Positions 19,596-47,123 of a stretch of DNA of 64,000 nt are shown piece by piece (position 1 is the first letter of the stretch; each line of letters begins with the position of its first letter). The translations under genes were made by a program, and so were the position numbers. The stretch is taken from contig JAJYWL010000016.1 of the NCBI GenBank assembly GCA_021791545.1, forward strand, positions 87,545 through 151,544, given 5' to 3'. This DNA comes from a bacterium (GTDB taxonomy: Bacteria; Patescibacteriota; Microgenomatia; Levybacterales; UBA12049). The notes below the pieces were generated by a model. That model made no database searches, had not been told where the DNA came from, and saw only the letters and a program-made list of their open reading frames with translations.

Positions 19596-19652
19596 AAGCA
19601 ATTTTCCCTATTGAAAATATTTTTTGAAATCACTTATTATATTTAATAAGAA

Positions 19653-22072: not shown

Positions 22073-22357
22073 ATGAGCGATACAAAAATTCTTGAACAAA
22101 AAATTAAAGATCTTGAAGAAAAAATAAAAAAACTTGAAGGAGAGCTTGAATATTATTCGGAAGAAAGAAAGTGGATGGAACAACTTTATGAACATGCGGA
22201 AAAACTTGTGATTAAAAACAAGAAAGCTACTGCCTTTTTTCTTCAAAGACATCTATTAATAGACTTTCAAAGAGCTTCGGAATTACTGAAAAGACTGGAA
22301 AAAAATGGTGTAGTGGGAAAAGATCTGGGTTTTGAGTCAAGAAAGGTTTTAAAATGA
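22073..22357 (+). CDS. small coiled-coil protein with a C-terminal FtsK-gamma-like winged-helix domain
   Basis: The C-terminus (TAFFLQRHLLIDFQRASELLKRLEKNGVVGKDLGFESRKVL) aligns with the FtsK gamma consensus ([37 protein letters not shown]). TATAAT lies 6 nt before the ATG. Confidence 0.5.
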   Translation: MSDTKILEQKIKDLEEKIKKLEGELEYYSEERKWMEQLYEHAEKLVIKNKKATAFFLQRHLLIDFQRASELLKRLEKNGVVGKDLGFESRKVLK

Positions 22358-22707
22358 AAAAAGCAAAAGATGTAGAAGAATATATTAATCAAGCACCTTT
22401 TGAAATTCAGGATAAACTTCGGGGACTTAGAGAAATTATTAAAGAAATAGTTCCTCTGGCAAAGGAGAAAATAAGTTACGGAATGGCATTTTATGAATAC
22501 AAGGGAAGATTAGTATATTTTGGATACCAGAAAAAACATATAGGTCTCTACATTCCTCCTCCCGTAATTGAAAACAATACAGATTTATTAAAGGATTATG
22601 TGACAACAAAATCTGCGGTTCATTTGTCTTTGGATAAAAAGCTTCCTAAAGCTCTTATAACAAAACTTGTAAAAGACAGGATTAAATGGAACGAAAGTAA
22701 TAAATAA
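22354..22707 (+). CDS. DUF1801 (YdhG-like) domain protein
   Basis: 117 aa with a pattern typical of DUF1801. It shows an ATGA start/stop overlap with the upstream gene. Confidence 0.55.
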   Translation: MKKAKDVEEYINQAPFEIQDKLRGLREIIKEIVPLAKEKISYGMAFYEYKGRLVYFGYQKKHIGLYIPPPVIENNTDLLKDYVTTKSAVHLSLDKKLPKALITKLVKDRIKWNESNK

Positions 22708-22765
22708 AGCTACCTTTTACAAAGTACTCCTTGAAAATTATTTATGTATTTTTTATATTAAAATT

Positions 22766-23152
22766 GTGGGTAGGAAATTTCTTAAGGACTATCTATTTTG
22801 GGGTTTCCTTCTTTGGCTTCTTGGCTATCTTCTAGGTTTATTATTCTTTATTCTAGTTCCCAGAGATTTTATCGGTTGGGTCATAATGCCGATCGGAATT
22901 TTAGCTACTGTCATTGTTCTCTTTAAAAAGATTAAGAGTAAAAGTTTTAAGCATTATGTAAAAATAGGAATCGCCTGGACATTAATCGCAATTATTCTGG
23001 ATTATGTTTTTCTCGTTAAGCTCTTAAGGCCTCAGGATGGTTATTATAAGTTTGATGTTTATGTTTACTATCTTTCTACTTTTCTTTTACCTGTTTTAGT
23101 GGGTTGGCTTATTACAAAGAAAAAGTTGAAGATTTCCCTTAAGTGGCAATAG
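22766..23152 (+). CDS. hypothetical 4-TM membrane protein
   Basis: Hydrophobicity pattern only. Confidence 0.4.
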   Translation: MGRKFLKDYLFWGFLLWLLGYLLGLLFFILVPRDFIGWVIMPIGILATVIVLFKKIKSKSFKHYVKIGIAWTLIAIILDYVFLVKLLRPQDGYYKFDVYVYYLSTFLLPVLVGWLITKKKLKISLKWQ

Positions 23153-23220
23153 TAAAGGACTTACTAATTTCTTACATTCTTCTTTTCAAACTCTTCAGCT
23201 AAAAGTAGTAAATTTTTTAC

Positions 23221-23682
23221 GTGAACAACAAAATTTTTCCTTGTCTATGGTTTGATAGAGAGGCTGAAGAAGCTGCAAAGTTCTATACCTCTGTTTTTAG
23301 AAATTCAAAAATAATTACCACAACAAGATATGACGCTTCATCTGCAAAAGCTGCCGGTTTACCGGAGGGAACGGTAATGACTGTAATATTTGAACTCGAT
23401 GGAATGCAGTTTATGGCATTAAACGGAGGACCTTTGTTTAAATTTTCGGAAGCAATTTCGTTTGTTGTAAATTGTAAAGATCAGGAAGAAATAGATTACT
23501 ATTGGAAAGCTCTTTCTGCCCATCCAGAGAATGAGCAGTGTGGCTGGTTAAAAGATAAGTTCGGGCTTTCGTGGCAGATAGTTCCCGGAAATTTAGGAGA
23601 GCTTATTACTTCTCCTAAGGCAACAGCAAAACTTATGGATATGAAAAAGATTGTAATAGATGAATTGAAAAACGCACAGTAA
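23221..23682 (+). CDS. PhnB-like / VOC family protein (3-demethylubiquinone-9 3-methyltransferase-like domain)
   Basis: CLWFDREAEEAAKFY N-terminal signature of PhnB-like proteins. Confidence 0.65.
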   Translation: MNNKIFPCLWFDREAEEAAKFYTSVFRNSKIITTTRYDASSAKAAGLPEGTVMTVIFELDGMQFMALNGGPLFKFSEAISFVVNCKDQEEIDYYWKALSAHPENEQCGWLKDKFGLSWQIVPGNLGELITSPKATAKLMDMKKIVIDELKNAQ

Positions 23683-23696
23683 TTGAAAGGAAATAT

Positions 23697-24128
23697 ATGG
23701 TTCAACTTTATCCTTATTTAAATTTTAACGGACAAGGACAAGAAGCAATGCAATTTTATCAATCGGTTCTGGGTGGGGATTTGAAAATCCAAACTTATGA
23801 AGAATCCGGACAGGCAAAAAAACCTGAAGAAAATAATCTTTTGATGCATGGAGAATTAAGAACAGATAACGGGATTATTTTTTATGCAGCTGACGGAAAT
23901 GAAGAACATAAGGTAGAAATGGGAAACAGCGTTCATATGAGTCTACAGGGAGATGATGAGGAGCTTTTGACAAAATATTTTAATGGTTTGTCTGAAGGAG
24001 GGAATGTTGAGTTTCCTTTGTCGAAGCAATTTTGGGGAGATACTTTCGGTATGTTTACGGATAAGTTTGGGATTCATTGGATGGTAAACATTACTTCTAA
24101 GGAAAGAATGAGTGGAGGTGAAAAATGA
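23697..24128 (+). CDS. PhnB-like / VOC family protein
   Basis: PYLNFNGQGQEAMQFYQSVLGG N-terminal PhnB-like signature. Confidence 0.6.
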   Translation: MVQLYPYLNFNGQGQEAMQFYQSVLGGDLKIQTYEESGQAKKPEENNLLMHGELRTDNGIIFYAADGNEEHKVEMGNSVHMSLQGDDEELLTKYFNGLSEGGNVEFPLSKQFWGDTFGMFTDKFGIHWMVNITSKERMSGGEK

Positions 24129-24520
24129 ATTTTATTTCAATTCTTCTTTTTTCGGAAAATCCGGAAAAGCTTTCAGATTTTTATTCAAAAGTTTTTCAAA
24201 AAGATCCTGATTGGTCCGAGAGTGGTTACTACGGATTTATGGTAGGCCAGTCGGTAATAACGATAGGCCCACACGATAAGGTAAAAGGAAAGAGCAAAAA
24301 TCCGGAAAGGATAATGCTTAATTTTGAAACAGAAGATGTTAAGGGTGAATTCGAAAGAGTAAAAGATATTGAGGGAGCAGAAGTTATAGCTGAACCTTAC
24401 TCGCCTGATGAGGAAGAAAAAACTTTTATTTCTACGCTTGCAGATCCTGACGGAAATTTTTTCCAGATAACTTCAACATGGGAAGAAATGTCTGAAGGTA
24501 TGGAAAACCTTTCAAACTAA
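24125..24520 (+). CDS. VOC/glyoxalase-like family protein
   Basis: Small protein with a VOC-like pattern (FYSKVF...ADPDGNFFQI). Confidence 0.45.
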   Translation: MNFISILLFSENPEKLSDFYSKVFQKDPDWSESGYYGFMVGQSVITIGPHDKVKGKSKNPERIMLNFETEDVKGEFERVKDIEGAEVIAEPYSPDEEEKTFISTLADPDGNFFQITSTWEEMSEGMENLSN

Positions 24521-25345: not shown

Positions 25346-25831
25346 ATGGATGAAACTAAAATTTTAAGAATGGAACTTTTGAGTTTATTAAGAGGAGGAA
25401 ATGCTCATATGACTTTTGATCAAGCTATTGAAGAGTTTCCGAGAAATAGAATAAACGAAGTTTTCCCAAACGGAAATTATTCTTCATGGGCTTTGTTGGA
25501 GCATATAAAAAGAACACAATCAGACATCCTAGAATTTATAAAAGAGAATAATTATAAGGAAAAAGAGTGGCCAAAGGATTACTGGCCAGATTCTTCCATT
25601 AAGGCAGATGAACATGATTGGAAGAAGACAATAGAAGAGTATAAAAAAGACTTAAGGGACTTGGAAGAGATTGTTAACGATGAAAAGATAGATTTATATA
25701 AAGAGATTCCTTGGGGAGAGGGACAAAATATATTAAGAGAAATTCAACTTGTCGCAGATCACTCTTCCTATCATATAGGAGAATTTGCGATAATGAGACA
25801 GGTCATGGGAACTTGGGGAAAAGGCCATTAA
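25346..25831 (+). CDS. DinB/YfiT-like (DinB_2) family protein
   Basis: Four-helix-bundle DinB_2 pattern, including the HSSYHIGE metal-binding His region. Confidence 0.55.
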   Translation: MDETKILRMELLSLLRGGNAHMTFDQAIEEFPRNRINEVFPNGNYSSWALLEHIKRTQSDILEFIKENNYKEKEWPKDYWPDSSIKADEHDWKKTIEEYKKDLRDLEEIVNDEKIDLYKEIPWGEGQNILREIQLVADHSSYHIGEFAIMRQVMGTWGKGH

Positions 25832-25882: not shown

Positions 25883-26371
25883 ATGAAAAAATATCTTCAG
25901 ATAACTCTTATCCTAGGCGCTTTTGGACTATTGGTTATTTTTAGACAGTTAAGAGGATCCGAAACTCCCGTAATCGGCAAGCAAAATCAGAACTCTTTTG
26001 GCGTAGGACAGACACAGACACAAACACAAACAACAACTCCTACGGGAAGTCCTCAAAATCAAAATCAACCCCAAACCAGCGCAATGGCATATAAAGACGG
26101 GACTTACACAGGAAGTGTGGAAGACGCATTTTACGGAAATGTTCAGGTCCAAGTTATTGTAAGCGGAGGAAAGATAAGCGATGTTAATTTTCTCCAATAC
26201 CCAAATGACAATCAGACATCACAATTTGTAAATTCTCAGGCAATGCCCCTTCTAAAACAAGAAGCTTTACAAGCACAAAGTTCACAAGTTGATATTGTTT
26301 CGGGAGCTTCCGCGACGAGTCAGGCTTTTCAAGCTTCTCTTACCAACGCTTTAAATCAGGCAAAAATATAA
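25883..26371 (+). CDS. FMN-binding domain protein (NqrC/RnfG-like), membrane anchored
   Basis: N-terminal TM segment. FMN_bind signature (YKDGTYTGS...VDIVSGASATSQAF), including the flavinylation-site motif D-x-x-S-G-A-S. Confidence 0.7.
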   Translation: MKKYLQITLILGAFGLLVIFRQLRGSETPVIGKQNQNSFGVGQTQTQTQTTTPTGSPQNQNQPQTSAMAYKDGTYTGSVEDAFYGNVQVQVIVSGGKISDVNFLQYPNDNQTSQFVNSQAMPLLKQEALQAQSSQVDIVSGASATSQAFQASLTNALNQAKI

Positions 26372-27111
26372 TGAAAAAAACTGCGGTAATTATGGGGATG
26401 CCCGTAATTATAGAAATACTGGATAAAAATGCAAAAGAAAGCGATATTGACGAGGTCTTTAGTTACTTTGTCTCTATAGACGAAAAATTTAGTCCTTACA
26501 AAAATGATAGTGAAGTATCAAAAATTAATAGAAAAGAAATTGATGAGAGAAACTACAGTAAAGAGATGAAATATATATTAAAGGAAGCCGCAAGAACAAA
26601 GAAAGAAACAAACGGATATTTTGAAATAAATCTCAACGGTAAGTTCGATCCTTCGGGAATAGTTAAAGGGTATGCAATCTTTGAAGGGGCAAGAAAATTA
26701 AAAGCGAAAGGATTTAAGAATTATTACGTTGAAATTGCGGGGGATATTCAGGTTTCCGGAACGAATAAAGAAGATAAGTCTTGGAAAGTGGGAATTCGTA
26801 ATCCATTCAATCAGGAAGAAATAGTAAAAGTAGTTAACATTTCAGATAATGGAATTGCAACTTCAGGAAATTATATAAGGGGAAAGCATATTTTTAATCC
26901 GGTTTCTAATAAAGAAGCAGACGAGATTGCGAGTATAAGCGTAATTGCCAAAAACGTCTATGATGCAGACAGGTATGCAACTGCTGCGTTTGCCATGGGG
27001 GAGAAAGGAATATATTTTCTTGATAAACTTAAAGGAGTAGAGGGATACATGATAACAAAAGATAAAAAAGCAGTGTACACTAAAAATTTTGAAAAGTTCG
27101 TAATAAATTAA
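26371..27111 (+). CDS. apbE: FAD:protein FMN transferase
   Basis: The ApbE family pattern and its position between an FMN_bind protein and a flavoprotein membrane subunit support the call. It is 246 aa, shorter than typical ApbE. Confidence 0.7.
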   Translation: MKKTAVIMGMPVIIEILDKNAKESDIDEVFSYFVSIDEKFSPYKNDSEVSKINRKEIDERNYSKEMKYILKEAARTKKETNGYFEINLNGKFDPSGIVKGYAIFEGARKLKAKGFKNYYVEIAGDIQVSGTNKEDKSWKVGIRNPFNQEEIVKVVNISDNGIATSGNYIRGKHIFNPVSNKEADEIASISVIAKNVYDADRYATAAFAMGEKGIYFLDKLKGVEGYMITKDKKAVYTKNFEKFVIN

Positions 27112-27112
27112 A

Positions 27113-28636
27113 ATGAAATTCATAGATTCTATTTTGAACAGGGTTACAATGTACAGACTCACTCTGTATTATTTGATATTTTTGGTAGGTTCGGCTTCTC
27201 TTCTGAGTTTTCTTGGATTCTTTAAAACTTTTTCTTTTGATGATATCTTAATTTCATCAGGTATAGTCATTATTACTTCATATATTTCTAATTACATTTT
27301 CTCTAAGTTATTAAGTGCTCCAACGAATGTAGAATCTGTCTATATTACCGCCTTAATACTCGTACTCATAGTGCCGGTAAGGCTTCCAGTAGATCTTCCG
27401 TTTCTGGTTGCAGCTTCTGTTGTAGCAATGGCTTCTAAATATCTCTTAACTATTGAAAAGACTCATGTATTTAATCCCGCAGCTGTTTCTGTTGCTGCTA
27501 TTGCACTTCTTTCGCCGGAACATACCGCTACTTGGTGGATCGGGACTCCAATAATGTTCCCTTTTGTTTTGGCAGGAGGGTTATTGCTTATAAGAAAGAT
27601 TGAAAGAGCTAATATGGTTTTTACTTTTTTAATCGCTTATCTTGTCATTATCGGTTCGGCAACAATTCTTTCGGGAGGCTCAATATTTAAAGTTTGGGAA
27701 ATAAGTCTTTTAAGAACAGCTCTTTTATTCTTTGCTTTTGTAATGTTTACAGAACCCATTACTAGTCCTTCCGTTTCTAAATTTAGAGATTACTATGCTT
27801 ATGTTGTAGCCTTTTTTTATGCTACGCCACAACTAAATTTTTTAAGCATAGGACTTACTCCTGAAATAGCTCTTTTACTTGGCAACGTTTTTTCATATAT
27901 TGTTAATCCTAAATATAAATTGGTGCTTCCTTTAAAATTTACAAATTGGTTGTCTCCAACAACTGCAGAATTTGCTTTTGCTCTTCCCCAAAAAATTAAA
28001 TTCAATCCGGGACAATATATGGAATGGACCCTTCCTCACAAAAATACCGATTCTAGAGGCAATAGGAGATACTTTAGTATTTCATCAACGCCAAATGAGG
28101 AAGATCTAAAAGTTACAGTAAGATTTAATAATCCCTCAAGTTCTTATAAACAATTCTTAAGCAAGATGAGAGAAGGAGATAAAATCTTTGCGTCTCAGCT
28201 TTCAGGAGATTTCGTTTTGTCTGACGATCCTAAACCAATTGCCTTAATAGCAGGTGGAGTTGGAGTTGCTCCTTTTAAAAGTATGATACAGGATATTATT
28301 GAAAAAGGTATTAAAAAAGACATAATTTTAATTTATTCAAATAAAACGGAAGACGAAATAATTTTTAAAGATTTATTTGAGAAAGCTAAAGGTTATGGAG
28401 TAAAAACAGTTTATGTTTTGACGGATGTTGAACATCTTCCTTTAGGATGGACGGGAGAAAAAGGAAGATTAAATCAAGATAAAATAAGAGAGATTATTCC
28501 CGATTATAATCAAAGGATATTTTATCTTTCGGGGCCACAGCTCATGGTACAGTCTTTTCAGGAGATACTCAAAGAGATGGGAGTTAAGAGAACTCAGGTT
28601 AAGAAAGACTTCTTCCCTGGTTATGAAGAAAAGTGA
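27113..28636 (+). CDS. fusion of an RnfD/NqrB-like membrane domain and an NqrF-like FAD/NAD(P)-binding oxidoreductase domain
   Basis: The N-terminal polytopic domain has HVFNPAA and MFTEPITSP motifs resembling the NqrB/RnfD NPA and M-x-TDP-TSP blocks, plus GSATILSGGS. The C-terminus has RRYFSISS (RxYS FAD site) and GGVGVAPF (NAD site). Confidence 0.6.
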   Translation: MKFIDSILNRVTMYRLTLYYLIFLVGSASLLSFLGFFKTFSFDDILISSGIVIITSYISNYIFSKLLSAPTNVESVYITALILVLIVPVRLPVDLPFLVAASVVAMASKYLLTIEKTHVFNPAAVSVAAIALLSPEHTATWWIGTPIMFPFVLAGGLLLIRKIERANMVFTFLIAYLVIIGSATILSGGSIFKVWEISLLRTALLFFAFVMFTEPITSPSVSKFRDYYAYVVAFFYATPQLNFLSIGLTPEIALLLGNVFSYIVNPKYKLVLPLKFTNWLSPTTAEFAFALPQKIKFNPGQYMEWTLPHKNTDSRGNRRYFSISSTPNEEDLKVTVRFNNPSSSYKQFLSKMREGDKIFASQLSGDFVLSDDPKPIALIAGGVGVAPFKSMIQDIIEKGIKKDIILIYSNKTEDEIIFKDLFEKAKGYGVKTVYVLTDVEHLPLGWTGEKGRLNQDKIREIIPDYNQRIFYLSGPQLMVQSFQEILKEMGVKRTQVKKDFFPGYEEK

Positions 28637-34022: not shown

Positions 34023-34775
34023 ATGAGCGGAACAATTAATAAAATGAAAAATTTTTACATTGGAACTTCAGGTTACAATTATAAACATTGGAAAGAAGTT
34101 TTCTATCCTCGCGGACTTTCTTATTCTAAGTGGTTAAATTATTATTCCCAACATTTTTCTACGGTTGAAATTAATGCTACATTTTACGGCAATTTTAGAA
34201 GAACTGTTTTTGAGAAATGGAAAGAAGAGACAGGCGATGATTTTATATTTACCCTCAAAGGACCAAGGTTAATCACTCATACAAAGAAGTTAAATGATAT
34301 TGATGAAAGTTTAGGGATATTCTTGGGGAATACGGAAGGTTTAGGTAAAAAGTTGAATATGATTTTATGGCAATTCCCTCCAAGTTTTAAGTGTGAAACA
34401 GAAACGTTAGGCAGATTAAAAGAATTTAGAAATAAGCTCCCAAAAAACATAAGACAAGCTTTTGAGTTTAGGCATAAATCTTGGTATGAAACTAATATGA
34501 AAGAAGAATTACAAAAAAATAAAATAAATATTGTTATTGCCCAATCTAAAAGATTTCCTGAAGAAAAGAACATAAACGGAGACTTTTATTACATAAGATT
34601 TCATGGACCTCAAAGACTGTATTCTTCATCTTATTCTCCTAAAGAACTTTTGGAGTGGGCTAACTTTGTAAAGAACGAAACAGATAATAAAGATGTTTAT
34701 TGTTACTTTAATAATGATGTTAGGGGATTTGCAGTAAGAAATGCTAAAGAGCTTAGTGCGTTAGTTATTTCTTAA
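34023..34775 (+). CDS. DUF72 (YecE-like) family protein
   Basis: The N-terminal FYIGTSGYNYKHW and the overall pattern are typical of DUF72. Confidence 0.7.
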   Translation: MSGTINKMKNFYIGTSGYNYKHWKEVFYPRGLSYSKWLNYYSQHFSTVEINATFYGNFRRTVFEKWKEETGDDFIFTLKGPRLITHTKKLNDIDESLGIFLGNTEGLGKKLNMILWQFPPSFKCETETLGRLKEFRNKLPKNIRQAFEFRHKSWYETNMKEELQKNKINIVIAQSKRFPEEKNINGDFYYIRFHGPQRLYSSSYSPKELLEWANFVKNETDNKDVYCYFNNDVRGFAVRNAKELSALVIS

Positions 34776-37226
34776 TTTAATCCTTTCATTTATTTGAAGT
34801 TTTTCTAATGCTATCGCCAGATCTGATTCCTCATCTAGTACGGGTGACCAAATATCGCCTATTTTTTCAAGTCTTTCAAATATGTTTTCAATATTAAAAT
34901 CTTTTGGGTTAAGACCTATCTTTACTTCTTCCCATCTTAGTGGTGTCGATACAGATGCTTTTTCAACAGGCTTAAGGCTATATGGCGCAGCAATTGTTTG
35001 TCCATCTCTATTCTGTAGGAAATCAAGATAAACTTTTTTCTTTCTGTTTTGTGGATTTCTTTCAACGCTAGTGAAACTGGGAATTTTTCTATGAATTATT
35101 TTGCATAAAATTTCGGCAAATTGTCTGCTTTGTTTGAACGAATATCTTGATTTCAATGGAACGAAAATATGAAGTCCTGTTGCTCCCGATGTTTTACAAT
35201 AACTATTAAGGCCCACTGCGTCTAGGATTTCTTTACTCCTTATGGCTGTTTCAACTACATAATCAAAAGATATGTCGAGTGGATCAAGGTCTATTACCAG
35301 ATAATCTGGTTTATCCAGACTGATAATTCTTGAAAACCATGGATTTATCTCAATGCATCCGAGATTTGCCATATAGACCAGAGTTTCTTTGTTTTGACAA
35401 ATTATGTAATTAATATTTTTTTCTTCCGACCCGGAATAAATGTCTTTAGTTTCAATCCATTTAGGAAAAAGTCCTCTTGTATCTTTTTGCCAGAATTTTT
35501 CTCCATTAATCCCATTTGGAAATCTATGAAGATTTTCAGGTCGATCTTTAAGGTAGGGAAGGATATAGGGCGAAATTTTATAGTAAAATTTTACGAGGTC
35601 TCTTTTGGTATAACCATCAGTTGGCCAATAAGTTTTTTCAAGATTAGAAAGTTTAAAATTTATCTTTTCGTCTTTTACGGTTTTTGCATTAACTGCTTTT
35701 TCTTTTCTTACGTTTTTTGGATCAAGGTCTTCCCTAAATCCTAAAAATTTAGGCTGACGCATTACTCCTTCATTTGTCCATTCTGTAAACTCCACCTCGC
35801 AAACAATAAGGGGTTTAATCCATGTAACCGGCATATCGGTTTTGGGAGGGCTTAAAAACGGACTTTCTTTTTGGCTAAGGTTTTCAAGCTTTTCTCCAAT
35901 TTCTTTCAATTCTGTATCGTTAAATCCTCCTCCCGAATTCCCTATATATATAAAATTTTTTTCATCATCATAGACACCAAGAATAAGAGAACCAAAGTAT
36001 TTTCTTGAACCACGTGGTTTAGTAAATCCTCCTATTACGGCTTCTTGTTGAAGGCGGCTTTTTATTTTTACCCAGTCTTCTGTTCTTTTTCCCTCTAAAT
36101 ATCTACTTTCCAAATTTTTTCCTATTATTCCCTCAAGTTTTTGTTTTGCTGCGGCATTAAAAAATGAAACTCCTCTTTCACTAATGAAATCGCTAATTTT
36201 TATGTTAGGAAGGTTGGGAAGTACATTCTTTAGTATGTCTTTCCTTTTATATAAAGGAAGATTTGTTAGATCAGAATCTTTGAAATATAGAATATCGAAT
36301 ATGTAATATACTAAATTTCCTTTTTCGGATCTTACAAAATTTTGAAGAAGCTGAAAACTTGATTTCCCATTTTTATCTAAGACTACGACTTCACCGTCCA
36401 AAATCATGTTTTCTTTTATTTCCTTTAAAGATTCTTGAATAGGTTTAAATTTTTCGTTAAAAGAAATATTATTTCTTGAAAGTAAGTTTGCCTTTCCATT
36501 ATTTATTACAGAAATTATCCTATAACCGTCCCATTTAATTTCAAATATCCAATTTCTGTTGTCAAAAGGATTTTTTATGAGGGTTGAAAGCATGGGCTTG
36601 ATAAAATCAGGCATTTTCTTTTTTGTAGCTCCGTCTAAATTTAGCGATTCTTTTGGTTTTTCTCCATTTTTTATTTCGTCCATACTTCTTCCGGTTTTTA
36701 CAGAAAGGTCCTGTTTTATGAGTTCATCTTCGTTTGCAAATTCATCTTTTCCTTTCATCAGCATCCATGAATTTTCGGAAGTATTTATTTTAAATAAGTG
36801 ATATTCCCCCTTAATTTTATTGCCGTTTAAGATTATCTTAAGATTTCCTTTTTCAAGTTCATCCAGTAATGTTTTCCCAATATCTCCCTTTGTCTCCAGC
36901 GGCATATAATTGCCCTGGTCCCAAACCATTACTGTACCCGCCCCATAATTTCTTTTTGGAATTGTTCCTTCGAAATCTCTGTAGTCGTACGGATGGTCTT
37001 CCACCATCATTGCGAGCCTTTTTATATTGGGATCGGAGGATGGTCCCTTGGGTATTGCCCAACTTTTGAGAACTCCTTCCATTTCCAAGCGGAAATCGTA
37101 GTGAAGATGAGAAGCTTGGTGTTTTTGAATAACAAATCTTAGGACACCCTTATTTTTTGTTGGTTTTCCTTGTGGTTCGGGCGTTTCATCAAATCTTCTT
37201 TTTTCATTATATTTGGCTAGGCTCAT
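34761..37226 (-). CDS. ligD: ATP-dependent DNA ligase D (NHEJ) with phosphoesterase, ligase and primase-polymerase domains
   Basis: N-terminal PE domain (RFVIQKHQASHLHYDFRLE). Ligase motif I KxDG (EIKWDGYR). C-terminal LigD polymerase domain. Confidence 0.85.
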   Translation of the reverse strand: MSLAKYNEKRRFDETPEPQGKPTKNKGVLRFVIQKHQASHLHYDFRLEMEGVLKSWAIPKGPSSDPNIKRLAMMVEDHPYDYRDFEGTIPKRNYGAGTVMVWDQGNYMPLETKGDIGKTLLDELEKGNLKIILNGNKIKGEYHLFKINTSENSWMLMKGKDEFANEDELIKQDLSVKTGRSMDEIKNGEKPKESLNLDGATKKKMPDFIKPMLSTLIKNPFDNRNWIFEIKWDGYRIISVINNGKANLLSRNNISFNEKFKPIQESLKEIKENMILDGEVVVLDKNGKSSFQLLQNFVRSEKGNLVYYIFDILYFKDSDLTNLPLYKRKDILKNVLPNLPNIKISDFISERGVSFFNAAAKQKLEGIIGKNLESRYLEGKRTEDWVKIKSRLQQEAVIGGFTKPRGSRKYFGSLILGVYDDEKNFIYIGNSGGGFNDTELKEIGEKLENLSQKESPFLSPPKTDMPVTWIKPLIVCEVEFTEWTNEGVMRQPKFLGFREDLDPKNVRKEKAVNAKTVKDEKINFKLSNLEKTYWPTDGYTKRDLVKFYYKISPYILPYLKDRPENLHRFPNGINGEKFWQKDTRGLFPKWIETKDIYSGSEEKNINYIICQNKETLVYMANLGCIEINPWFSRIISLDKPDYLVIDLDPLDISFDYVVETAIRSKEILDAVGLNSYCKTSGATGLHIFVPLKSRYSFKQSRQFAEILCKIIHRKIPSFTSVERNPQNRKKKVYLDFLQNRDGQTIAAPYSLKPVEKASVSTPLRWEEVKIGLNPKDFNIENIFERLEKIGDIWSPVLDEESDLAIALEKLQINERIKLRNN

Positions 37227-38026
37227 GTTTGATTGTATATTCTTTTTGGTTCTTCTTTTTCTTTTTCTTGTTCAAGACTTTTCTTTAAAAGCGCCATCAA
37301 ATCCGTTACGTTGGATGTTTCCTGGATAGTTTCTTCTTTGGCTGTTATTTTTTCTCCTTTCGCTTTTTCGTCTATTAGTTTTTTCAAATCTTCAGTATAG
37401 GTATCATGAAATTCTTCGGGCTTAAAATCTCCGCTTAATTGGTTTATTAAGGCAAGAGCCATTTCAATCTCTTTATCGCTAACCTCAAGGTTTGGTGCCT
37501 TAATTTCTTTTGCATCTTTTATCTCGCTTTGAAATCTCATTTGATTTAGGACGATAACATTGTCTAGGGGTTTTATGATTCCCAGCCTTTGTCTGGTTCT
37601 TATGACAAATTTTGCTATCCCTACTTTCTTACTTTTTCTTAAAGCTTCTATCATTAGAGAGTATGCTTTTTGAGCAGATTTGTCGGGTTCGAGATAATAG
37701 GGTTTCTCGTAGTAAACAGAATCTATTTCACCCTCATTTACAAACTCCAGCACATCTATTGTTTTAGTTTTTTTGACGTTAGCTTTAATAAAATCATCTT
37801 GTTGTAATATTACATAATCTCCTTTTTCATATTCATAACCTTTTACAAGTTCGTTATAGGGAACTTCTTTTTCTTCGGTTTTACACACTTTCGCATATCT
37901 AATGGGGGAATAGTCTTTCTTATGAAGAAGATCAAAATCCAAACCCTCATCTTTCGAAGCGGTATACATTTTTATGGGAATATTAACGAGCCCGAAACTT
38001 AAAGCTCCTGACCATATAGCTCTCAT
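37223..38026 (-). CDS. ku: Ku protein (NHEJ DNA end-binding)
   Basis: MRAIWSGALSFGLVNIPIKMY N-terminus is typical of bacterial Ku. Its stop overlaps the ligD start (operon). Confidence 0.85.
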   Translation of the reverse strand: MRAIWSGALSFGLVNIPIKMYTASKDEGLDFDLLHKKDYSPIRYAKVCKTEEKEVPYNELVKGYEYEKGDYVILQQDDFIKANVKKTKTIDVLEFVNEGEIDSVYYEKPYYLEPDKSAQKAYSLMIEALRKSKKVGIAKFVIRTRQRLGIIKPLDNVIVLNQMRFQSEIKDAKEIKAPNLEVSDKEIEMALALINQLSGDFKPEEFHDTYTEDLKKLIDEKAKGEKITAKEETIQETSNVTDLMALLKKSLEQEKEKEEPKRIYNQT

Positions 38027-41464: not shown

Positions 41465-41523
41465 ACTTTAATGTTACATGAAATAAACTTCAGCTTCAAA
41501 TATAAGAGTGGTATAATCTTTTT

Positions 41524-41955
41524 ATGGCAGAAGTACAATTGGACATGGGATTAGTTCCCGAAGTAGGTAGTACCGAAAGAGCAATTGCGAACGGAACTAC
41601 AATTTTTGAATCTCCAGACGGGAAAAAACTCGTCTTGAATCCGGAATTGGACTGGATATTCAGGTGGATAAAGTCGGGAACAGAGTTTCATACCGCTCCA
41701 GAAGGATCAGAGGGGGGAAGTCCTTTCGCAGGAAGACCGGAAGGTAAAGTCCTAGTAGCAATCCAAGGGAAAAAAATTGAATTTACACATAGAAGCGGTA
41801 TATTATCTTTTGGTGCCCGTATTTTAGGAGTTAAAAACCCAGATGACAGAAGATTTATAGGAAATTTTGGATGGTGGAGAAAGGGAGTTTTTAGTCAAGA
41901 TAGTAAAGATACCGACGAAGCAGAGTCTCTTAAGCTTGGACTTAAAAAGAAGTAA
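41524..41955 (+). CDS. hypothetical protein
   Basis: No recognisable domain. Confidence 0.4.
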   Translation: MAEVQLDMGLVPEVGSTERAIANGTTIFESPDGKKLVLNPELDWIFRWIKSGTEFHTAPEGSEGGSPFAGRPEGKVLVAIQGKKIEFTHRSGILSFGARILGVKNPDDRRFIGNFGWWRKGVFSQDSKDTDEAESLKLGLKKK

Positions 41956-42399
41956 TTATTTTTTTTCCTCTAATTTTTTTAGTATTTCCTGTAGCAGGTT
42001 TTCCTGATTTTTAAGATATTCAGTAATTGTTTCTATTTCTTTTTCTGCTTTCTTATCTGTTTCGAAGTCGTGTTCTGATCTAAGTTCTGCATGTTTTCCT
42101 TGTACATTTTGTCCTATTAAGAGAAGTGGCATCAAATGTAGCTGAATAAGATTGGAAATGAATAACCATAAGACAAAAGCAGGATAAGGATCGAACTTTA
42201 GATCTTTTGGAGCAAATATATTCCAACCGAGCCATAATATCGTCCAAGTAAAAATAATAAAAAAGAATCCCATTGTTCCAATTTTTTCGGTCACGAATAG
42301 GGCAAGTTTGTCCATTTTCGATAATCTTCCCTTATGGATTACGTTTACGTTTATGATTGGGAATTCTTTTCTTATATTCTCCAGAGAAGTCTTTTCCAT
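41956..42399 (-). CDS. DUF1003 family membrane protein
   Basis: Two-TM core (LGWNIF...FDPYPAFVLWLFISNLIQLHLMPLLLIGQN) and a C-terminal coiled-coil. Confidence 0.55.
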   Translation of the reverse strand: MEKTSLENIRKEFPIINVNVIHKGRLSKMDKLALFVTEKIGTMGFFFIIFTWTILWLGWNIFAPKDLKFDPYPAFVLWLFISNLIQLHLMPLLLIGQNVQGKHAELRSEHDFETDKKAEKEIETITEYLKNQENLLQEILKKLEEKK

Positions 42400-42492
42400 A
42401 ACTTTAGACTAACACAATCTTATTCTTATTTTCAAACGATTTATTAATCTTTTTCTGATGATTTTCTTACCAAACTCAAGTATAATAACTTA

Positions 42493-43032
42493 ATGCGGTT
42501 AGTGGGAATAGGCGGAACTTTCAGAAAAGACTCATTCAGTATGGGTCTTTTGAAGGCTGTAAAAGAATTATTACCTGAAGGAATAACATTCGAAATATTG
42601 GATTTTAAAGATTTTCCTCCATACAATCCTGATATAGAAATACCGGAAGAAATTAAGATCTTCAAGGATAAAATCAAACAGTCTGATGCGGTTCTTTTTT
42701 CAACGGCTGAATATAATTATTCGGTACCCGGCAATCTAAAAAACGCAATTGACTGGGCATCAAGACCTTATGGAGATAATTCTTTCGAAGACAAGCCTGC
42801 GGCAATAATTAGTGAATCAACAGGACAGTTGGGTGGATCAAGAGCTCAATATCATTTAAGACAGATAATGGTATTTTTAAATATGCATCCGATTAATAAG
42901 CCGGAAGCGATCGTTCCTTTTGCTCAAGACAAGTTTGATGAAGACGGAAAACTGACTGACGAAAAAACGAGAGAGAAAATAAAAGAATTATTAGAGGCAT
43001 TGGCAAAATGGGCAGAAAGATTAAGTATATGA
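42493..43032 (+). CDS. NAD(P)H-dependent FMN reductase family protein
   Basis: The pattern MRLVGIGGTFRKDS...LFSTAEYNYSVPGNLKNAIDWASRP is typical of NADPH-dependent FMN reductase/chromate reductase. Confidence 0.75.
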   Translation: MRLVGIGGTFRKDSFSMGLLKAVKELLPEGITFEILDFKDFPPYNPDIEIPEEIKIFKDKIKQSDAVLFSTAEYNYSVPGNLKNAIDWASRPYGDNSFEDKPAAIISESTGQLGGSRAQYHLRQIMVFLNMHPINKPEAIVPFAQDKFDEDGKLTDEKTREKIKELLEALAKWAERLSI

Positions 43033-43508
43033 AACTAAAACAATTATTATTTTTTCTAAAAGAAAGAGTCGCTTATGCACACTGTGACATTCCCTGTGGA
43101 ATCTACGATCCACACGCTTCTCAGGTTGCTGCACATACCATTCTAAGAATGACTCAGCTTATTAGTGAAATAAAAAGAGAAAACGAAACAAAAGCAGAGC
43201 ATGATATTGCAAGAACGACTTTTGTAAAAGAAGAACATTCCGATCTTTTGGAAGAAGAATTAGATACATTGGCACACGACTATTTTAAACAGGAACAATA
43301 TGAACAATTTCCAAACTTGAAAGAATTATTTGAAAAGACATTAAAGGCCGGTGCAAAAGCAAGACAAAATATAGATATTGAAGCAGCAAAAGAAACTTTA
43401 GAAAATACAATGCAGATAGCCGAGATTTTTTTCAAATCTAAAGGCGTAGAAAGCATTAGAGTTCCCTCACTTTTTCCCACAGGCGGAGAAATAGTTGTTC
43501 AAAAATGA
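43008..43508 (+). CDS. sodN: nickel superoxide dismutase precursor
   Basis: The Ni-hook motif HCDIPCGIYDP matches Streptomyces SodN (HCDLPCGVYDP). It follows a cleavable leader ending AYA. The alternative start ATG 43029 gives a 17-aa leader and an ATGA overlap with the upstream gene. Confidence 0.8.
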   Translation: MGRKIKYMKLKQLLFFLKERVAYAHCDIPCGIYDPHASQVAAHTILRMTQLISEIKRENETKAEHDIARTTFVKEEHSDLLEEELDTLAHDYFKQEQYEQFPNLKELFEKTLKAGAKARQNIDIEAAKETLENTMQIAEIFFKSKGVESIRVPSLFPTGGEIVVQK

Positions 43509-43792
43509 CAATTTTATCCAAGTACAAGATTTCGGGCCACAGCATGGAACCTGCAATTAAAGATAAGGATTATGTTTTGGTTTCAGGACTTACCTATCTT
43601 TTTAGAAAACCCCAGGTAGGAGATGTTGTTCTTTTCAGAATAAAGAAGGAGACATATATAAAAAGAATAGAAAGGATAAATGGTGAAAAATTCTTTGTTT
43701 TAGGCGATAATAGTAATGATAGCCTAGATAGTAGAGATTTTGGGTGGATTCCTAAAAATAAAATTTTGGGGAAAGTTATCCTTAAAATATGA
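43505..43792 (+). CDS. sodX: NiSOD maturation protease (signal peptidase I-like S26/S24 family)
   Basis: 95 aa with the Ser nucleophile motif SGHSMEP and a GDNSNDSLDSR box. ATGA overlap with sodN. Confidence 0.7.
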   Translation: MTILSKYKISGHSMEPAIKDKDYVLVSGLTYLFRKPQVGDVVLFRIKKETYIKRIERINGEKFFVLGDNSNDSLDSRDFGWIPKNKILGKVILKI

Positions 43793-44304
43793 TATTTAAT
43801 TTATTTCTAATATTCGCAATTCTTTTTCTTCTTTTTTTCCTCTCAATGATTTGGCCACCCGATAGTCCTTGGGCGCCTTGGTGGAGAACAGACAGTAGTG
43901 TAGCAGAAAGAATTTGTAGGCTGGCGAATGTTAAAAGAGGAGAGGTAATTTACGAATTAGGAAGTGGAGATGCACAAACTTTAATTGCTGCGGCTAAAAC
44001 TTTTAATGCAAAGGGAGTGGGAATTGAAATCGATCCTCTTAGGGTTTTTATCTCTAAATTTTTCTTAAGAATAAAAGGATTAACCAAAGATGTAAGAATA
44101 ATAAGAGGCAATTTTTTTGAAGAAGATTTGAGTAAAGCAGATGTCATCTTTGTGTATTTAGTCCCTAAGACCTTGGATAAGTTGTTGCCAAAATTTAGAA
44201 AGGAACTAAAAAAAGGCACAAGGATAGTAAGTTATAGATACAAAATGAAGCTAAAGGAAGTAAAAGTTGATAAAGAACTCCAACTTTATCTGTACACTAT
44301 TTAA
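43789..44304 (+). CDS. class I SAM-dependent methyltransferase
   Basis: Motif I (VIYELGSGDAQTL) and a Rossmann-fold pattern. Confidence 0.7.
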   Translation: MIFNLFLIFAILFLLFFLSMIWPPDSPWAPWWRTDSSVAERICRLANVKRGEVIYELGSGDAQTLIAAAKTFNAKGVGIEIDPLRVFISKFFLRIKGLTKDVRIIRGNFFEEDLSKADVIFVYLVPKTLDKLLPKFRKELKKGTRIVSYRYKMKLKEVKVDKELQLYLYTI

Positions 44305-45295
44305 ATCTGAGGAAAGCCCATCTTAATTTATTCAAAGCTTTATATCCAAGATAAGCTTTTTTATTTATCACCAGATCATAACTTCCCAAATATTCCGTAA
44401 GCTTTGGTCCGTATCCCTGTTTAAATCTATGAAAACCAAACCAGGGATCTTTTGGATCAGGATTAGGTCCTAATGATCCCCACATGTCAAAGTATTTAAG
44501 CCCCAGTTTCTTTCCCCACTTTATTACCTCCCACATCATTAAGTTTGATGCCATTACCTCTCTATGATTACTGCTTGATGCTCCATAAGGATAATAAAGG
44601 GTATCTTTAAAAACAAAAACAATCCAGGTTACCAAAACCTCTTTTTCATAAATAGCCTTAAAAAGGTGAGCGGTTAATTTTTCTTTATCAATTTTGTTTT
44701 TCCTTAATGTCTCCCACATTAGCCTATGATAATTTTTTGTATGCGCATAAAACTTTTGTCTCGTTGTTGTTTCTTCAGTCAGCCTGAGATATTCTTCAAA
44801 TGCTTTTTCAGAGCTGTCTTCTTCAATTTTTACTCCTTTTTTTTCTGCAACTCTGATGTTGTATCTGGTTTTTGGATGCATATTCTTAAGAAGCTCTTCT
44901 TCGGATTTGGAAATATCCAGAATAAAGTTGTATTTTGTAAATAAAGGATGGGCGGAGGGAACTAGTCCTAACTCTCTCATTTTATTGAAGTTATCTTTTT
45001 CGAAAACAATATTTGGTTCAAGTTGAATAAATACGCAATTTTCTTTTTCTCCGATTTCCCTTAAATTCCTTACCATTTCTTTGTCGGGCATTTTGCCTTT
45101 AGGAAAGTAGCCGATATTAAAGGAAGTTCTGGGAACTTTGTGGATGGTGATTTGCATTCCTTTCTCGCTGACTACCTTTACTCCCGTTTTTTCCCTAAAT
45201 GTCGTCCATTCATGGGTTTGAAGCGGGTGTGATGCTAAATCGTTAATTTTTTTTGGATCCATATTAATAAAAATCGGAACCCTCTTTGCCTTCAA
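44297..45295 (-). CDS. FemAB-family peptidoglycan bridge-formation aminoacyltransferase-like protein
   Basis: About 330 aa with the Fem/FemX-like pattern (two GNAT-like halves). Its start overlaps the uvrD stop. Confidence 0.5.
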   Translation of the reverse strand: MKAKRVPIFINMDPKKINDLASHPLQTHEWTTFREKTGVKVVSEKGMQITIHKVPRTSFNIGYFPKGKMPDKEMVRNLREIGEKENCVFIQLEPNIVFEKDNFNKMRELGLVPSAHPLFTKYNFILDISKSEEELLKNMHPKTRYNIRVAEKKGVKIEEDSSEKAFEEYLRLTEETTTRQKFYAHTKNYHRLMWETLRKNKIDKEKLTAHLFKAIYEKEVLVTWIVFVFKDTLYYPYGASSSNHREVMASNLMMWEVIKWGKKLGLKYFDMWGSLGPNPDPKDPWFGFHRFKQGYGPKLTEYLGSYDLVINKKAYLGYKALNKLRWAFLRFK

Positions 45296-47123
45296 AAATT
45301 TCTCTGTTTCTGGTCAAAGTTTCCTCAGGTAATTCCATTATAAACCTTGATACAATATTACTCGTTCTTTGCCCGAAATATAACCTCCTTCTTGCATATG
45401 TAAGGAAAAGTTTTTCTTTTGCCCTTGTCATTCCTACATAGCAAAGTCTTCTTTCTTCCTCAAGTTCCTGTCTATTCATGAGGCTTCTTGAGTGTGGGAA
45501 AAGACCTTCTTCCATTCCTACCATAAAAACAACAGGGAATTCTAAGCCTTTTGCTGCATGTAAAGTCATTAAATTAACAGTGTTTTTTATATTGTCGGGA
45601 TCTACGTGATCAGGAATATATTCTTGTTCTACGAGGGCAACATTTTCAAGAAATTCCGAAGGAATAGGAAATTCTATAGCAACCGATCTTAATTCTTTTA
45701 TGTTTTCAAGTCTTGCCCTATCTTCTTCATCTTTTTCGTCAAACATCGTAAGATACTCAGTTGCTTTTATTACACTGTCCATAACGTCTATGGTTTTAAG
45801 TTCTTTTATCTTTTCTCCCAAGCTTTCCTGAAATTCCAAGAATTTTTTAAGTCTGGTTTTGCCTATTTTTTCTATCCTCTTAAGAGAAGTTTTGTCTTTG
45901 GGATTATCTAAGACCTTAAGAAAAGCCAGGATATCTTTTATTTCTTTTCTTTCATAAAATCTTACTCCTCCTATTAGGATATAGGGGATAGAGAAATGGA
46001 GAAGGGCCTCTTCAATTGATCTTGATTGAGCATTCGTCCTGTAAAGAACGGCAAAATCCGAATATTTTAAATCCGGTCTTTGATATTTTATTTTTTCGAT
46101 CTGGTCAATTATGAATTGTGCTTCTTTTTCCTCATTCAAAGCTTCATATATTGCTATGTCTTCTCCTTTTTTATTTTCCGTCCAAAGTTTAAGAACTGGA
46201 TGTGAGTTGTTCCTTGAGATTACCGAGGAAGCGGCATCAAGAATTCGTTGTGTTGAGCGATAATTTTGGGATAAAGAAAAGGTTTTAACGTTTGAAAAAT
46301 CATCTTTGAATTTTGAAAGATTCTGGTAATCGGCTCCTCTAAAGCTATATATACTTTGGGCAAAATCTCCGACCACGCATACGTTTTTCCATTTGGCAGA
46401 CAAAAGTCTTGTAAGAGAATACTGCGCATGATTTGTATCCTGGTATTCGTCTACGAGTATATATCTGAATCTTGTTTGGTATTTTTCAAGTATTTCAGGA
46501 TAGGTTTTTAGGATTGAAACAGTTTTTAGTATGAGATCATCAAAGTCTAGTGCGTTATTTTCCTTCAAATGTTTTTGATAGAGAAGATATACTTTTGCCG
46601 CTGTTTCCTGGAAAAGACCCCTTGCATATTGGGGATATTGAGTTTCGTCTATCAGCTCATTTTTGGCTTCGGAAATAGTATTTAATATTGAAGAGGGTTT
46701 AAATTCTTTTATTGAGATTCCTAATTCTTTATAACACTCTTTTATCGTGTCTTTTTGATCCTGGTCGTCATAAATGGCAAAATTTGAACCCAGTCCCACT
46801 CTATTTCCTTCTACCCTTAATATCTTTGCGCAAAGTGAATGAAAAGTAGAGACAGTGGGTAAAGGTTGATCGGGAAGAAGCCTAAGAATTCTTTCTTTCA
46901 TCTCTTTGGCTGCCTTATTTGTAAAGGTAACCATCAGGATTTCCGATGGATCTACCCCTTTTTCTTTTATAAGATAGACTACTTTATAGGTTAAAACCCT
47001 TGTTTTTCCCGATCCTGCGCCGGCAAGAATTATCATCGGACCATCGGTGTTTTTTACTGCTTCTTGTTGTTCGGGGTTCAAATCATTGAGAAGTTCGAGC
47101 TTCATATCGTATAATGATATCAC
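45264..47123 (-). CDS. ATP-dependent DNA helicase UvrD/PcrA family (compact, 619 aa)
   Basis: Walker A (AGAGSGKTRVL), helicase motifs (ILVDEYQDTN, YRS) and a UvrD C-terminal region. Confidence 0.8.
   Translation of the reverse strand: MISLYDMKLELLNDLNPEQQEAVKNTDGPMIILAGAGSGKTRVLTYKVVYLIKEKGVDPSEILMVTFTNKAAKEMKERILRLLPDQPLPTVSTFHSLCAKILRVEGNRVGLGSNFAIYDDQDQKDTIKECYKELGISIKEFKPSSILNTISEAKNELIDETQYPQYARGLFQETAAKVYLLYQKHLKENNALDFDDLILKTVSILKTYPEILEKYQTRFRYILVDEYQDTNHAQYSLTRLLSAKWKNVCVVGDFAQSIYSFRGADYQNLSKFKDDFSNVKTFSLSQNYRSTQRILDAASSVISRNNSHPVLKLWTENKKGEDIAIYEALNEEKEAQFIIDQIEKIKYQRPDLKYSDFAVLYRTNAQSRSIEEALLHFSIPYILIGGVRFYERKEIKDILAFLKVLDNPKDKTSLKRIEKIGKTRLKKFLEFQESLGEKIKELKTIDVMDSVIKATEYLTMFDEKDEEDRARLENIKELRSVAIEFPIPSEFLENVALVEQEYIPDHVDPDNIKNTVNLMTLHAAKGLEFPVVFMVGMEEGLFPHSRSLMNRQELEEERRLCYVGMTRAKEKLFLTYARRRLYFGQRTSNIVSRFIMELPEETLTRNREIFEGKEGSDFY

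Follow-up and report, generated by a model that had tools for sequence, protein, structure and literature searches.

Does a Levybacteria-type bacterium (Microgenomates, CPR) possess a working nickel superoxide dismutase (NiSOD), and which of the genes packed around sodN belong to that system? The question is raised by four plus-strand genes in the window (the whole stretch of DNA analysed, 64,000 nucleotides), of which an earlier note had read the first three as a NiSOD operon with the fourth downstream. In order, these encode an NAD(P)H-dependent FMN reductase of the ChrR/YieF type, the class of soluble quinone/chromate reductases (42493-43032; 179 aa; PF03358), the NiSOD precursor SodN (43029-43508; 159 aa, of which 17 form the leader and 142 the mature chain), the NiSOD maturation protease SodX (43505-43792; 95 aa; TIGR02754), and an aKMT-like class I SAM methyltransferase with an N-terminal transmembrane helix (43789-44304; 171 aa). 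All of the ORFs and motifs claimed in the note were found at their coordinates, with family scores far above chance. As set out below, the locus is very probably a functional cytoplasmic NiSOD system of a Levybacteria-type bacterium. The sodN-sodX pair is confirmed as real and intact but also as ordinary, since hundreds of related public genomes already carry it, and NCBI names the enzyme there 'superoxide dismutase, Ni'; it is less noteworthy than the note had implied.

The four genes are linked by three ATGA stop/start overlaps, read directly from the sequence at 43029-43032, 43505-43508, and 43789-43792, and three such overlaps in succession imply co-translation. The unit ends with the methyltransferase gene, which faces a convergent FemAB gene on the minus strand. 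At the other end, a 93-bp intergenic region (42400-42492), presumed to be the promoter region of the four-gene unit, separates the FMN reductase gene from a divergent DUF1003 gene on the minus strand (41956-42399). A TATAAT hexamer was read at 42481-42486, 6 nt 5' of the FMN reductase ATG, a placement that would suit an mRNA with a very short leader or none. A consensus promoter and terminator scan of 41500-45400, which did not list this hexamer, returned sites no more numerous than in shuffled sequence and hence yielded no operon boundaries.

Profile searches placed SodN in the NiSOD family, with 124 bits against TIGR02753 (sodN; cut-off 90) and 115.5 bits against PF09055 (Sod_Ni; cut-off 25; E 3e-33). 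The longest sodN ORF spans 43008-43508, and gene callers take the ATG at 43008 (166 aa); comparison with 120 homologues, among which the commonest leader is 17 aa, favours a start at 43029. The choice bears on the translational coupling to an upstream FMN reductase asserted in the note, which names no sodN start: the reductase gene is present, but the 4-base ATGA exists only with the 43029 start, the overlap being 25 bases with the start at 43008. The leader, MKLKQLLFFLKERVAYA (43029-43079), runs straight into HCDIPCGIYDP, and the codons of the Ni-hook HCDIPCGIY were read directly at 43080-43106. Consistent with the textbook Ni-hook after a cleavable leader described in the note, His18 of the precursor aligned with residue 1 of mature Streptomyces NiSOD (1q0d, 1t6u; E 1e-16), such that cleavage between A-Y-A and H would expose His1. 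HCDIPCGIYDP was identical in 118 of 120 near homologues, most of which also have A-[YF]-A at leader residues -3 to -1, and the hook residues Tyr9 and Asp3 were found in 95/95 and 91/95 diverse NiSOD representatives, respectively. Across these 95 NiSODs, the cleavage site has Ala at P1 in 93 and Ala or Val at P3 in 90, a pattern that matches expectation for the substrate of an S26 peptidase.

Such a peptidase is encoded by the next gene. SodX scored 68.8 bits against the NiSOD maturation protease model TIGR02754 (cut-off 63.25) and matched PF10502 and PF00717 as well. It also exceeds the cut-off for general signal peptidase I (TIGR02227; 85.2 vs. 47), a point against the NiSOD reading. It carries the boxes SGHSMEP (Ser13), YIKRI (Lys53), and GDNSNDSLDSR (box E), the GxSMxP pattern recurring in 67 of the 78 SodX ORFs that adjoin sodN in related loci. 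Ser13 and Lys53 align with the SM and KR boxes of the Staphylococcus aureus signal peptidase SpsB, whose Ser and Lys we take to be the catalytic residues, in agreement with the S26/S24-type peptidase that the note had seen in this protein. SodX has the SM(x)P, KR, and GDNxxxSxDSR boxes in common with type I signal peptidases (S26; S. aureus SpsB, E. coli LepB), and its substrate site likewise obeys the Ala-x-Ala rule. Unlike those enzymes, however, it is only 95 aa long, has neither a membrane anchor nor a large inserted domain, and is encoded beside its single presumed substrate.

In the mechanism that we propose, the 159-aa SodN precursor would be translated from sodN and cut after A-Y-A17 by SodX, a putatively soluble Ser13/Lys53 peptidase produced from the adjoining, translationally coupled gene. 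The new N-terminus, His1-Cys2-Asp-Ile-Pro-Cys6-Gly-Ile-Tyr9, would then wrap Ni(II/III) through the amine and imidazole of His1, the amide and thiolate of Cys2, and the thiolate of Cys6, which are the ligands reported for NiSOD (PMC5722923). The resulting protein, a four-helix bundle that presumably assembles into a hexamer like the Streptomyces enzyme, would dismutate superoxide. SodN enzymes need a cognate peptidase, bind Ni at the N-terminal hook, and are homohexamers (PMC3919588). An experimental precedent for maturation by SodX is provided by SodN/SodX of Prochlorococcus marinus MIT9313 (Eitinger 2004), for which PMC3919588 describes active enzyme only when the peptidase was co-expressed. 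Going by its description, that system resembles the window in having sodN and a cognate sodX in a small-genome organism, although its host is a marine cyanobacterium and not a CPR bacterium.

Comparison with the NiSOD of S. coelicolor and S. seoulensis (1T6U, 1Q0D; SodN/SodX SCO5254/SCO5255) showed about 30% identity to SodN of the window. In both, a short cleavable leader with Ala as its last residue is followed at once by the hook H-C-D-x-P-C-G-x-Y-D-P, R39, D61, Y62, and K64 are conserved, and a dedicated small S26-type peptidase gene adjoins sodN. The likeness extends to the predicted fold. The AF2 model of SodN (pLDDT 87) forms a four-helix bundle with helices at residues 28-47, 53-85, 97-113, and 117-137, and all matches of the model in a Foldseek search of the PDB at E<1e-3 were NiSOD entries (TM 0.87-0.92), consistent with the right-handed four-helix bundle of NiSOD. 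The two loci differ in that sodX of the window lies downstream of sodN on the same strand with an ATGA overlap, whereas an intergenic region splits the Streptomyces genes, and no Nur/sodF-type regulation as in Streptomyces is evident at the window locus.

In Streptomyces NiSOD, a His1-Glu17-Arg47 hydrogen-bond triad has been described (PMC5722923), whereas SodN of the window, like its clade, has Ala17 and His47 at these second-sphere positions. Positions 17 and 47 covary among the 95 diverse NiSODs, with A/H in 43 and the E/R pair of Streptomyces a minority at 21; the triad therefore marks a subgroup and not the NiSOD family. Loss of function for want of Glu17/Arg47 was considered and rejected because Ala/His is the commonest state family-wide. 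The mature chain is also longer than that of Streptomyces (142 vs. 117 aa), owing to extra length in the helix1-helix2 loop and to a C-terminal tail of 21 residues, GVESIRVPSLFPTGGEIVVQK (43443-43505), that is predicted to form a beta hairpin, with strands at 142-146 and 154-158 in the AF2 model (pLDDT about 90). This tail lies outside the Pfam and TIGRFAM models and is absent from the Streptomyces enzyme. Within the clade, its residues R144, T151, P150, and G153 show little or no variation, and a tail of at least 15 aa is present in about 40 of the 95 diverse representatives. For NiSOD specialists, the locus draws attention to two alternative, covarying second-sphere pairs at 17/47 and to a conserved C-terminal hairpin that occurs in a large share of NiSODs and in no solved structure. 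A bolder reading, which we consider very unlikely, is that Levybacteria-type NiSODs are a mechanistically distinct subclass with three marks: Ala17/His47 in place of Glu17/Arg47 in the second sphere, a C-terminal beta hairpin, absent from solved structures, that might alter the hexamer or cover the Ni-hook, and an aKMT-like methyltransferase, anchored in the membrane and co-translated, that may act as a third component, modifying or tethering SodN or SodX.

SodN has 2,279 homologues, with no fewer than 517 genome loci, and we counted gene neighbourhoods in 80 related genome loci. sodX adjoins sodN in 78 of the 80, and dozens of Levybacteria-type MAGs, including ones named Levybacteria or Levyibacteriota, share the order sodN-sodX-methyltransferase-FemAB-UvrD. 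Proteins of Patescibacteria and Candidatus Levybacteria labelled 'superoxide dismutase, Ni' (P0014, P0053, P0117; L004, L006, L010) are 60 to 67% identical to SodN of the window and have the same 159-aa architecture, an identical hook, the same tail, and this gene order in common with the window; SodN of the window is nevertheless a distinct lineage, its nearest protein being 94% identical and the next 68%. Identities to the named Levybacteria MAGs are 58 to 67% for SodN, 64 to 70% for UvrD, and 54 to 69% for FemAB. Gene order and identities together point to a host within Levybacteria (Microgenomates, CPR), in line with the CPR-like genome recognized in the note, and the sodN-sodX pair appears to have come down by vertical inheritance in this lineage and not to be a recent acquisition. 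Beyond correct annotation, the significance of the locus is small: it is one more well-supported CPR case, in which a superoxide defence that depends on nickel has been stably retained by small-genome bacteria of the Levybacteria type and, it appears, passed down vertically. A rough NJ tree of the 80 best matches, which carries no support measure, placed the archaeal-titled sequences, with a single Dehalococcoidia sequence among them, in a group beside the CPR sequences; gene exchange between CPR and DPANN was considered, and no conclusion on transfer was drawn from this tree.

Two alternatives concern where the enzyme acts and where its genes came from. The leader is laid out like a signal peptide, with basic MKLK, hydrophobic LLFFL, and A-Y-A at the cut, and SodX scores well on the general signal peptidase I model, as would be expected if the leader were a short Sec-type signal peptide, NiSOD were exported, and the AXA cut were ordinary signal-peptidase processing outside the membrane. 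We regard this as highly improbable, given that the hydrophobic stretch is just five residues followed by charged K-E-R, that SodN has no long hydrophobic core in its leader (Kyte-Doolittle 19-residue maximum 0.75), and that SodX has no transmembrane segment that could serve as an anchor (19-residue hydropathy maximum 0.77), unlike the membrane-bound type I signal peptidases. To our knowledge, the characterised NiSOD enzymes are all cytoplasmic. As to origin, NiSOD is patchily distributed with documented transfers between phyla (PMC8346466), and MAGs whose titles name DPANN archaea, Dehalococcoidia, and other groups also contain related sodN-sodX pairs; both would suit genes that were gained horizontally not long ago, or that entered through faulty binning or assembly, in place of a native Levybacteria trait. 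Next to no credence can be given to this origin, and composition, synteny, and matched divergence led us to reject it: the contig around the genes, 221 kb long, bears typical CPR housekeeping genes, GC content is even across the region at 0.34 and equals that of the surroundings, gene order is shared by dozens of MAGs, and SodN has diverged as much as its neighbours. In the rough NJ tree, moreover, SodN of the window nests in the Levybacteria/Patescibacteria part, again with no support measure attached.

A further alternative to a self-sufficient sodN-sodX pair is that the four overlapping genes are one module in which SodN is a target or partner of the methyltransferase and/or the FMN reductase, be it that lysines of SodN or SodX are methylated or that redox support is given. 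The consecutive overlaps speak for it, as does the recurrence of the methyltransferase 3' of sodX in 49 of the 80 related loci, all of the Levybacteria-type lineage. At five of these loci (L043, L065, L078, L037, and L033), sodX and the methyltransferase gene stay together where FemAB and UvrD were not found, some of the contigs being short, and in L038 the two remain together despite 2.8 kb between them and sodN. The methyltransferase, present downstream as the note had claimed, carries the SAM motif GSGDA and has as its nearest solved relatives the broad-specificity archaeal protein-lysine methyltransferases 5FA8 and 5JWJ (E 1e-25); with 96 bits against the aKMT model NF041081, below the 200-bit equivalog cut-off, it is filed only as an aKMT-like class I methyltransferase. 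Its extra N-terminal transmembrane helix (Kyte-Doolittle up to 2.76 over residues 3-21), however, would anchor it in the membrane, unlike SodN and SodX, for which solubility is predicted. It is missing, too, from all sodN-sodX loci of DPANN, Dehalococcoidia, Woykebacteria, Daviesbacteria, and Saccharimonadales and from some of Levybacteria (L025, L053, and L060); hence, NiSOD can do without it. Its linkage, in most loci, cannot be told apart from plain conservation of the order methyltransferase-FemAB-UvrD, and we know of no methylation of NiSOD. The methyltransferase is accordingly a conserved neighbour within Levybacteria whose tie to NiSOD is unproven.

The FMN reductase has a clear family assignment (138 bits against PF03358 (FMN_red), cut-off 24), and its solved relatives include 1RTT (E 6.5e-49), the chromate reductase 3S2Y (2e-35), and E. 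coli YieF 3SVL (6.5e-31); no equivalog was reached in the NCBIfam model search. Its ChrR/YieF type counts in favour of the four-gene module; from the family, this reductase plausibly serves the same oxidative-stress purpose as NiSOD through two-electron quinone reduction. Against this, it lies 5' of sodN in only 5 of the 80 related loci (L004, L005, L006, L016, and L035). It is a recent, lineage-restricted addition upstream of sodN and not a conserved part of the sodN-sodX unit, and a module of all four genes is, on balance, unlikely. The preferred reading remains that SodN and SodX form the NiSOD system.

That Levybacteria-type CPR bacteria have retained NiSOD implies that they meet oxygen radicals to some extent and have nickel available. 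The oxygen-exposed lifestyle and nickel acquisition that the note had drawn from the pair nevertheless stood up less well than its gene assignments. SOD genes are reported in 66 to 83% of groundwater Patescibacteria MAGs and are common too in Patescibacteria enriched in anoxic wells. In the literature on NiSOD or sodN in Patescibacteria, CPR, Levybacteria, and DPANN, we found general surveys and no study of this system. Nickel importers (Nik, CbiMNQO, NiCoT, HupE/UreJ) and other SOD genes were sought among the genes called in the window ±10 kb (~84 kb of the 221-kb contig) by way of their precomputed Pfam labels, and none of either was seen in that span, the lack of an importer there counting against a working NiSOD. 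An Rfam scan of the window and both 10-kb flanks gave a tRNA-Asn as the single match, with no NiCo or other riboswitch. The sole metal transporter gene in the same span encodes an Nramp protein, a type that is not nickel-specific, and lies 8.7 kb past the right end of the window.

Four plus-strand ORFs were found at the locus, exactly as the earlier note had described: an FMN reductase (42493-43032, 179 aa), sodN (43008 or 43029-43508, 166 or 159 aa depending on the start), the peptidase gene sodX (43505-43792, 95 aa), and a SAM methyltransferase (43789-44304, 171 aa). Reading of the sequence revealed ATGA overlaps between successive genes (43029-43032, 43505-43508, and 43789-43792) and confirmed the motifs quoted for SodN (RVAYA, then the cut, then HCDIPCGIYDP) and for the peptidase (SGHSMEP and GDNSNDSLDSR), beside which the latter carries YIKRI. 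To the left of the unit, a 93-bp gap separates it from a divergent DUF1003 gene; to the right, a convergent FemAB-family gene shares the last 8 bases of the methyltransferase ORF.

The sodN-sodX pair had been well read and is correctly identified. SodN scored 115.5 bits against PF09055 and 124 bits against the TIGR02753 'sodN' equivalog (cut-off 90), its PDB matches were Streptomyces NiSOD chains only (E ~1e-16), and precursor His18, counting Met at 43029 as residue 1, aligned to residue 1 of mature Streptomyces NiSOD, in agreement with a check suggested in the earlier note. With 40 homologues as input, AlphaFold2 gave a model (mean pLDDT 87) containing four long helices, and the only PDB hits returned by Foldseek at E <1e-3 were 16 NiSOD chains (target-relative TM 0.87-0.92). 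SodX matched TIGR02754, the equivalog for 'nickel-type superoxide dismutase maturation protease' (68.8 bits, cut-off 63.25), as well as general S26 and S24 models. The expected peptidase dyad was found, with Ser13 (GHSMEP) and Lys53 (YIKRI) aligning to the corresponding Ser and Lys boxes in SpsB from S. aureus, which hold the catalytic Ser/Lys of S26 peptidases. No hydrophobic segment was detected in SodX (maximum 19-residue hydropathy 0.77), which makes it a minimal homologue of signal peptidases that is soluble, a property expected of SodX and not of a membrane-anchored LepB.

Gene callers placed the sodN start at ATG 43008 (166 aa). Met at 43029 is the preferred start, since it gives a 17-residue leader and lets the sodN start overlap the stop of the FMN reductase gene by the four bases ATGA; leaders of 17 residues were commonest among the 120 nearest homologues (40/120), while 24 residues occurred in just two. 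The residues preceding the cut were A-[YF]-A in most of these homologues and, across 95 diverse NiSOD representatives, P1 was Ala in 93 and P3 was Ala or Val in 90, the pattern known as the Ala-x-Ala rule of S26 peptidases. Export of SodN is unlikely, since the hydrophobic stretch of its leader comprises only five residues, followed by K-E-R, and SodX is predicted to be soluble.

In the passages of PMC3919588 citing Eitinger 2004 and two 2004 structure papers, SodN undergoes processing by a cognate peptidase and in active form is a homohexamer that binds nickel in its N-terminal hook, where His1, Cys2, and Cys6 provide two nitrogen donors and two sulfur donors (PMC5722923). Every sequence feature that this mechanism requires is present here: SodX would cleave the SodN precursor, exposing the hook, and mature SodN would load nickel, oligomerize, and become active. 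Whereas the mature Streptomyces chain is 117 aa, that of the window SodN is 142 aa, as in 116 of 120 near homologues, the extra residues lying in an extended loop that follows helix 1 and in a C-terminal tail of 21 residues. AlphaFold2 modeled this tail as a beta hairpin with high confidence, and it contains residues that are invariant or nearly so within the clade. Tails of at least 15 residues occur in ~40 of the 95 diverse representatives, which makes this a widespread subfamily feature, absent from every solved structure because all PDB entries are of the Streptomyces type. The Streptomyces enzyme also has a His1-Glu17-Arg47 triad (PMC5722923), whereas Ala17 and His47 occupy these second-sphere positions in the window SodN (34 and 70 in the numbering of the 159-aa precursor; 43128-43130 and 43236-43238). 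Positions 17 and 47 covary across the 95 NiSODs (A/H in 43, E/R in 21, mixed pairs rare). The possibility that Ala17/His47 signals inactivity was rejected, as this is the majority state; the structurally studied Glu/Arg network is the minority type.

Scanning one genome per species recovered at least 517 loci encoding relatives, and the best 80 were compared. Most belonged to MAGs titled Levybacteria/Levyibacteriota, Patescibacteria, Daviesbacteria, Woykebacteria, or Microgenomates, along with some DPANN archaea and Dehalococcoidia. sodN and sodX were adjacent in 78 of the 80, with FemAB downstream in 47 and UvrD in 38. Identities to named Levybacteria MAGs were similar for SodN (58-67%), UvrD (64-70%), and FemAB (54-69%), which fits vertical inheritance within the lineage, and a rough NJ tree nested the window SodN among Levybacteria and Patescibacteria sequences. 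The window lies within a metagenome contig of 221.6 kb (ENA ERZ27237183 k141_349997). GC content was uniform, with 0.34 at the locus. Precomputed Pfam labels for the window and 10 kb on either side were ordinary for CPR bacteria (RuvABC, DnaG, sigma-70, GroES/EL, MurJ, FemAB, sortase, PilO, DUF4012, and Ku/LigD, with dnaA and dnaN just left of the window). The earlier description of the genome as CPR-like is supported.

Both gene families said to flank the pair were confirmed, but the FMN reductase stood upstream of sodN in only 5 of the best 80 loci, which marks it as a recent insertion. Its product scored 138 bits against FMN_red, and its nearest solved relatives were 1RTT, chromate reductases, and E. 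coli YieF; as a ChrR/YieF-type reductase, it plausibly has a part in oxidative-stress defence. The product of the downstream gene is a SAM methyltransferase of class I that carries a transmembrane helix at its N-terminus. Its nearest structures were those of the Sulfolobus protein-lysine methyltransferase aKMT (5FA8 and 5JWJ, E 1e-25), and its score of 96 bits did not reach the 200-bit cut-off of the NCBIfam equivalog. The gene follows sodX in 49 of the best 80 loci and, in one related locus (L038), remains with sodX, 2.8 kb separating that pair from sodN. At sodN-sodX loci outside the Levybacteria-type lineage the methyltransferase was missing, as it was at some Levybacteria loci (L025, L053, and L060), and thus NiSOD does not depend on it; only in the Levybacteria-type lineage is it a conserved neighbour.

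Many related loci from public TPA co-assembly MAGs titled 'uncultured Gammaproteobacteria' (L007, L008, L011, L013-L015, L022-L024, and others) had the order sodN-sodX-methyltransferase-FemAB-UvrD, as in named Levybacteria, among which they also fell in the SodN tree. These titles are probably wrong. MAGs titled Micrarchaeota, Aenigmatarchaeota, or Nanoarchaeota, as well as records of uncultured archaea, contained sodN-sodX pairs 45-56% identical to that of the window; the archaeal-titled loci were L052, L067, L068, L073, L074, L079, L080, L082, and L083, with L052 (titled Heimdallarchaeota) encoding sodN without sodX. In the rough NJ tree, archaeal-titled SodNs and one Dehalococcoidia sequence formed a group beside the CPR sequences; ultrasmall bacteria and archaea may share one NiSOD type.

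The related Levybacteria and Patescibacteria proteins already bear the NCBI name 'superoxide dismutase, Ni [Patescibacteria group bacterium]', and 2,279 homologues were found. NiSOD annotation in Patescibacteria MAGs is already routine, and a survey of NiSOD over the whole tree of life has used this Pfam model (PMC10172142). The literature searched contained no paper dedicated to Levybacteria or DPANN NiSOD, a gap in attention rather than in knowledge of the system.

The nickel acquisition proposed in the earlier note was not confirmed: in the ~84 kb inspected (window ±10 kb), Pfam labels gave no Nik, CbiMNQO, NiCoT, or HupE genes, and neither a NiCo riboswitch nor another SOD was found. The oxygen-exposed lifestyle proposed for the host is a plausible but weak suggestion. 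The sole metal importer seen in this region was an Nramp-family divalent metal transporter ~8.7 kb right of the window end (18666-19955 of the right flanking sequence, L085), a transporter that is not known to be nickel-specific. Small plus-strand genes of the glyoxalase/bleomycin-resistance fold and 3-demethylubiquinone-9 3-methyltransferase-like type (PF06983) lie at 20484-20825 and 22354-24520, near a weak, sub-threshold DinB/mycothiol-S-transferase-like ORF (25346-25831); this may be a detoxification neighbourhood.

A plus-strand cluster at 25883-28636 encodes an FMN_bind protein (PF04205), the flavin transferase ApbE (PF02424), and a protein of 507 aa in which an RnfD/NqrB-like membrane part is fused to an FAD/NAD-binding FNR-like domain. 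The cluster resembles a membrane NAD(P)H oxidoreductase that works with flavins, whereas a CPR genome such as this would be expected to have no respiratory chain. On the minus strand, LigD, an 821-aa protein with ligase, primase-polymerase, and phosphoesterase domains, and Ku (34761-38026) together make up a full non-homologous end-joining pair, here in a bacterium with a small genome. In the left flanking sequence (L086, 3611-6209), dnaA and dnaN, then rnpA-yidD-yidC, lie ~4-6 kb from window position 1, so that the window starts near a likely replication origin.
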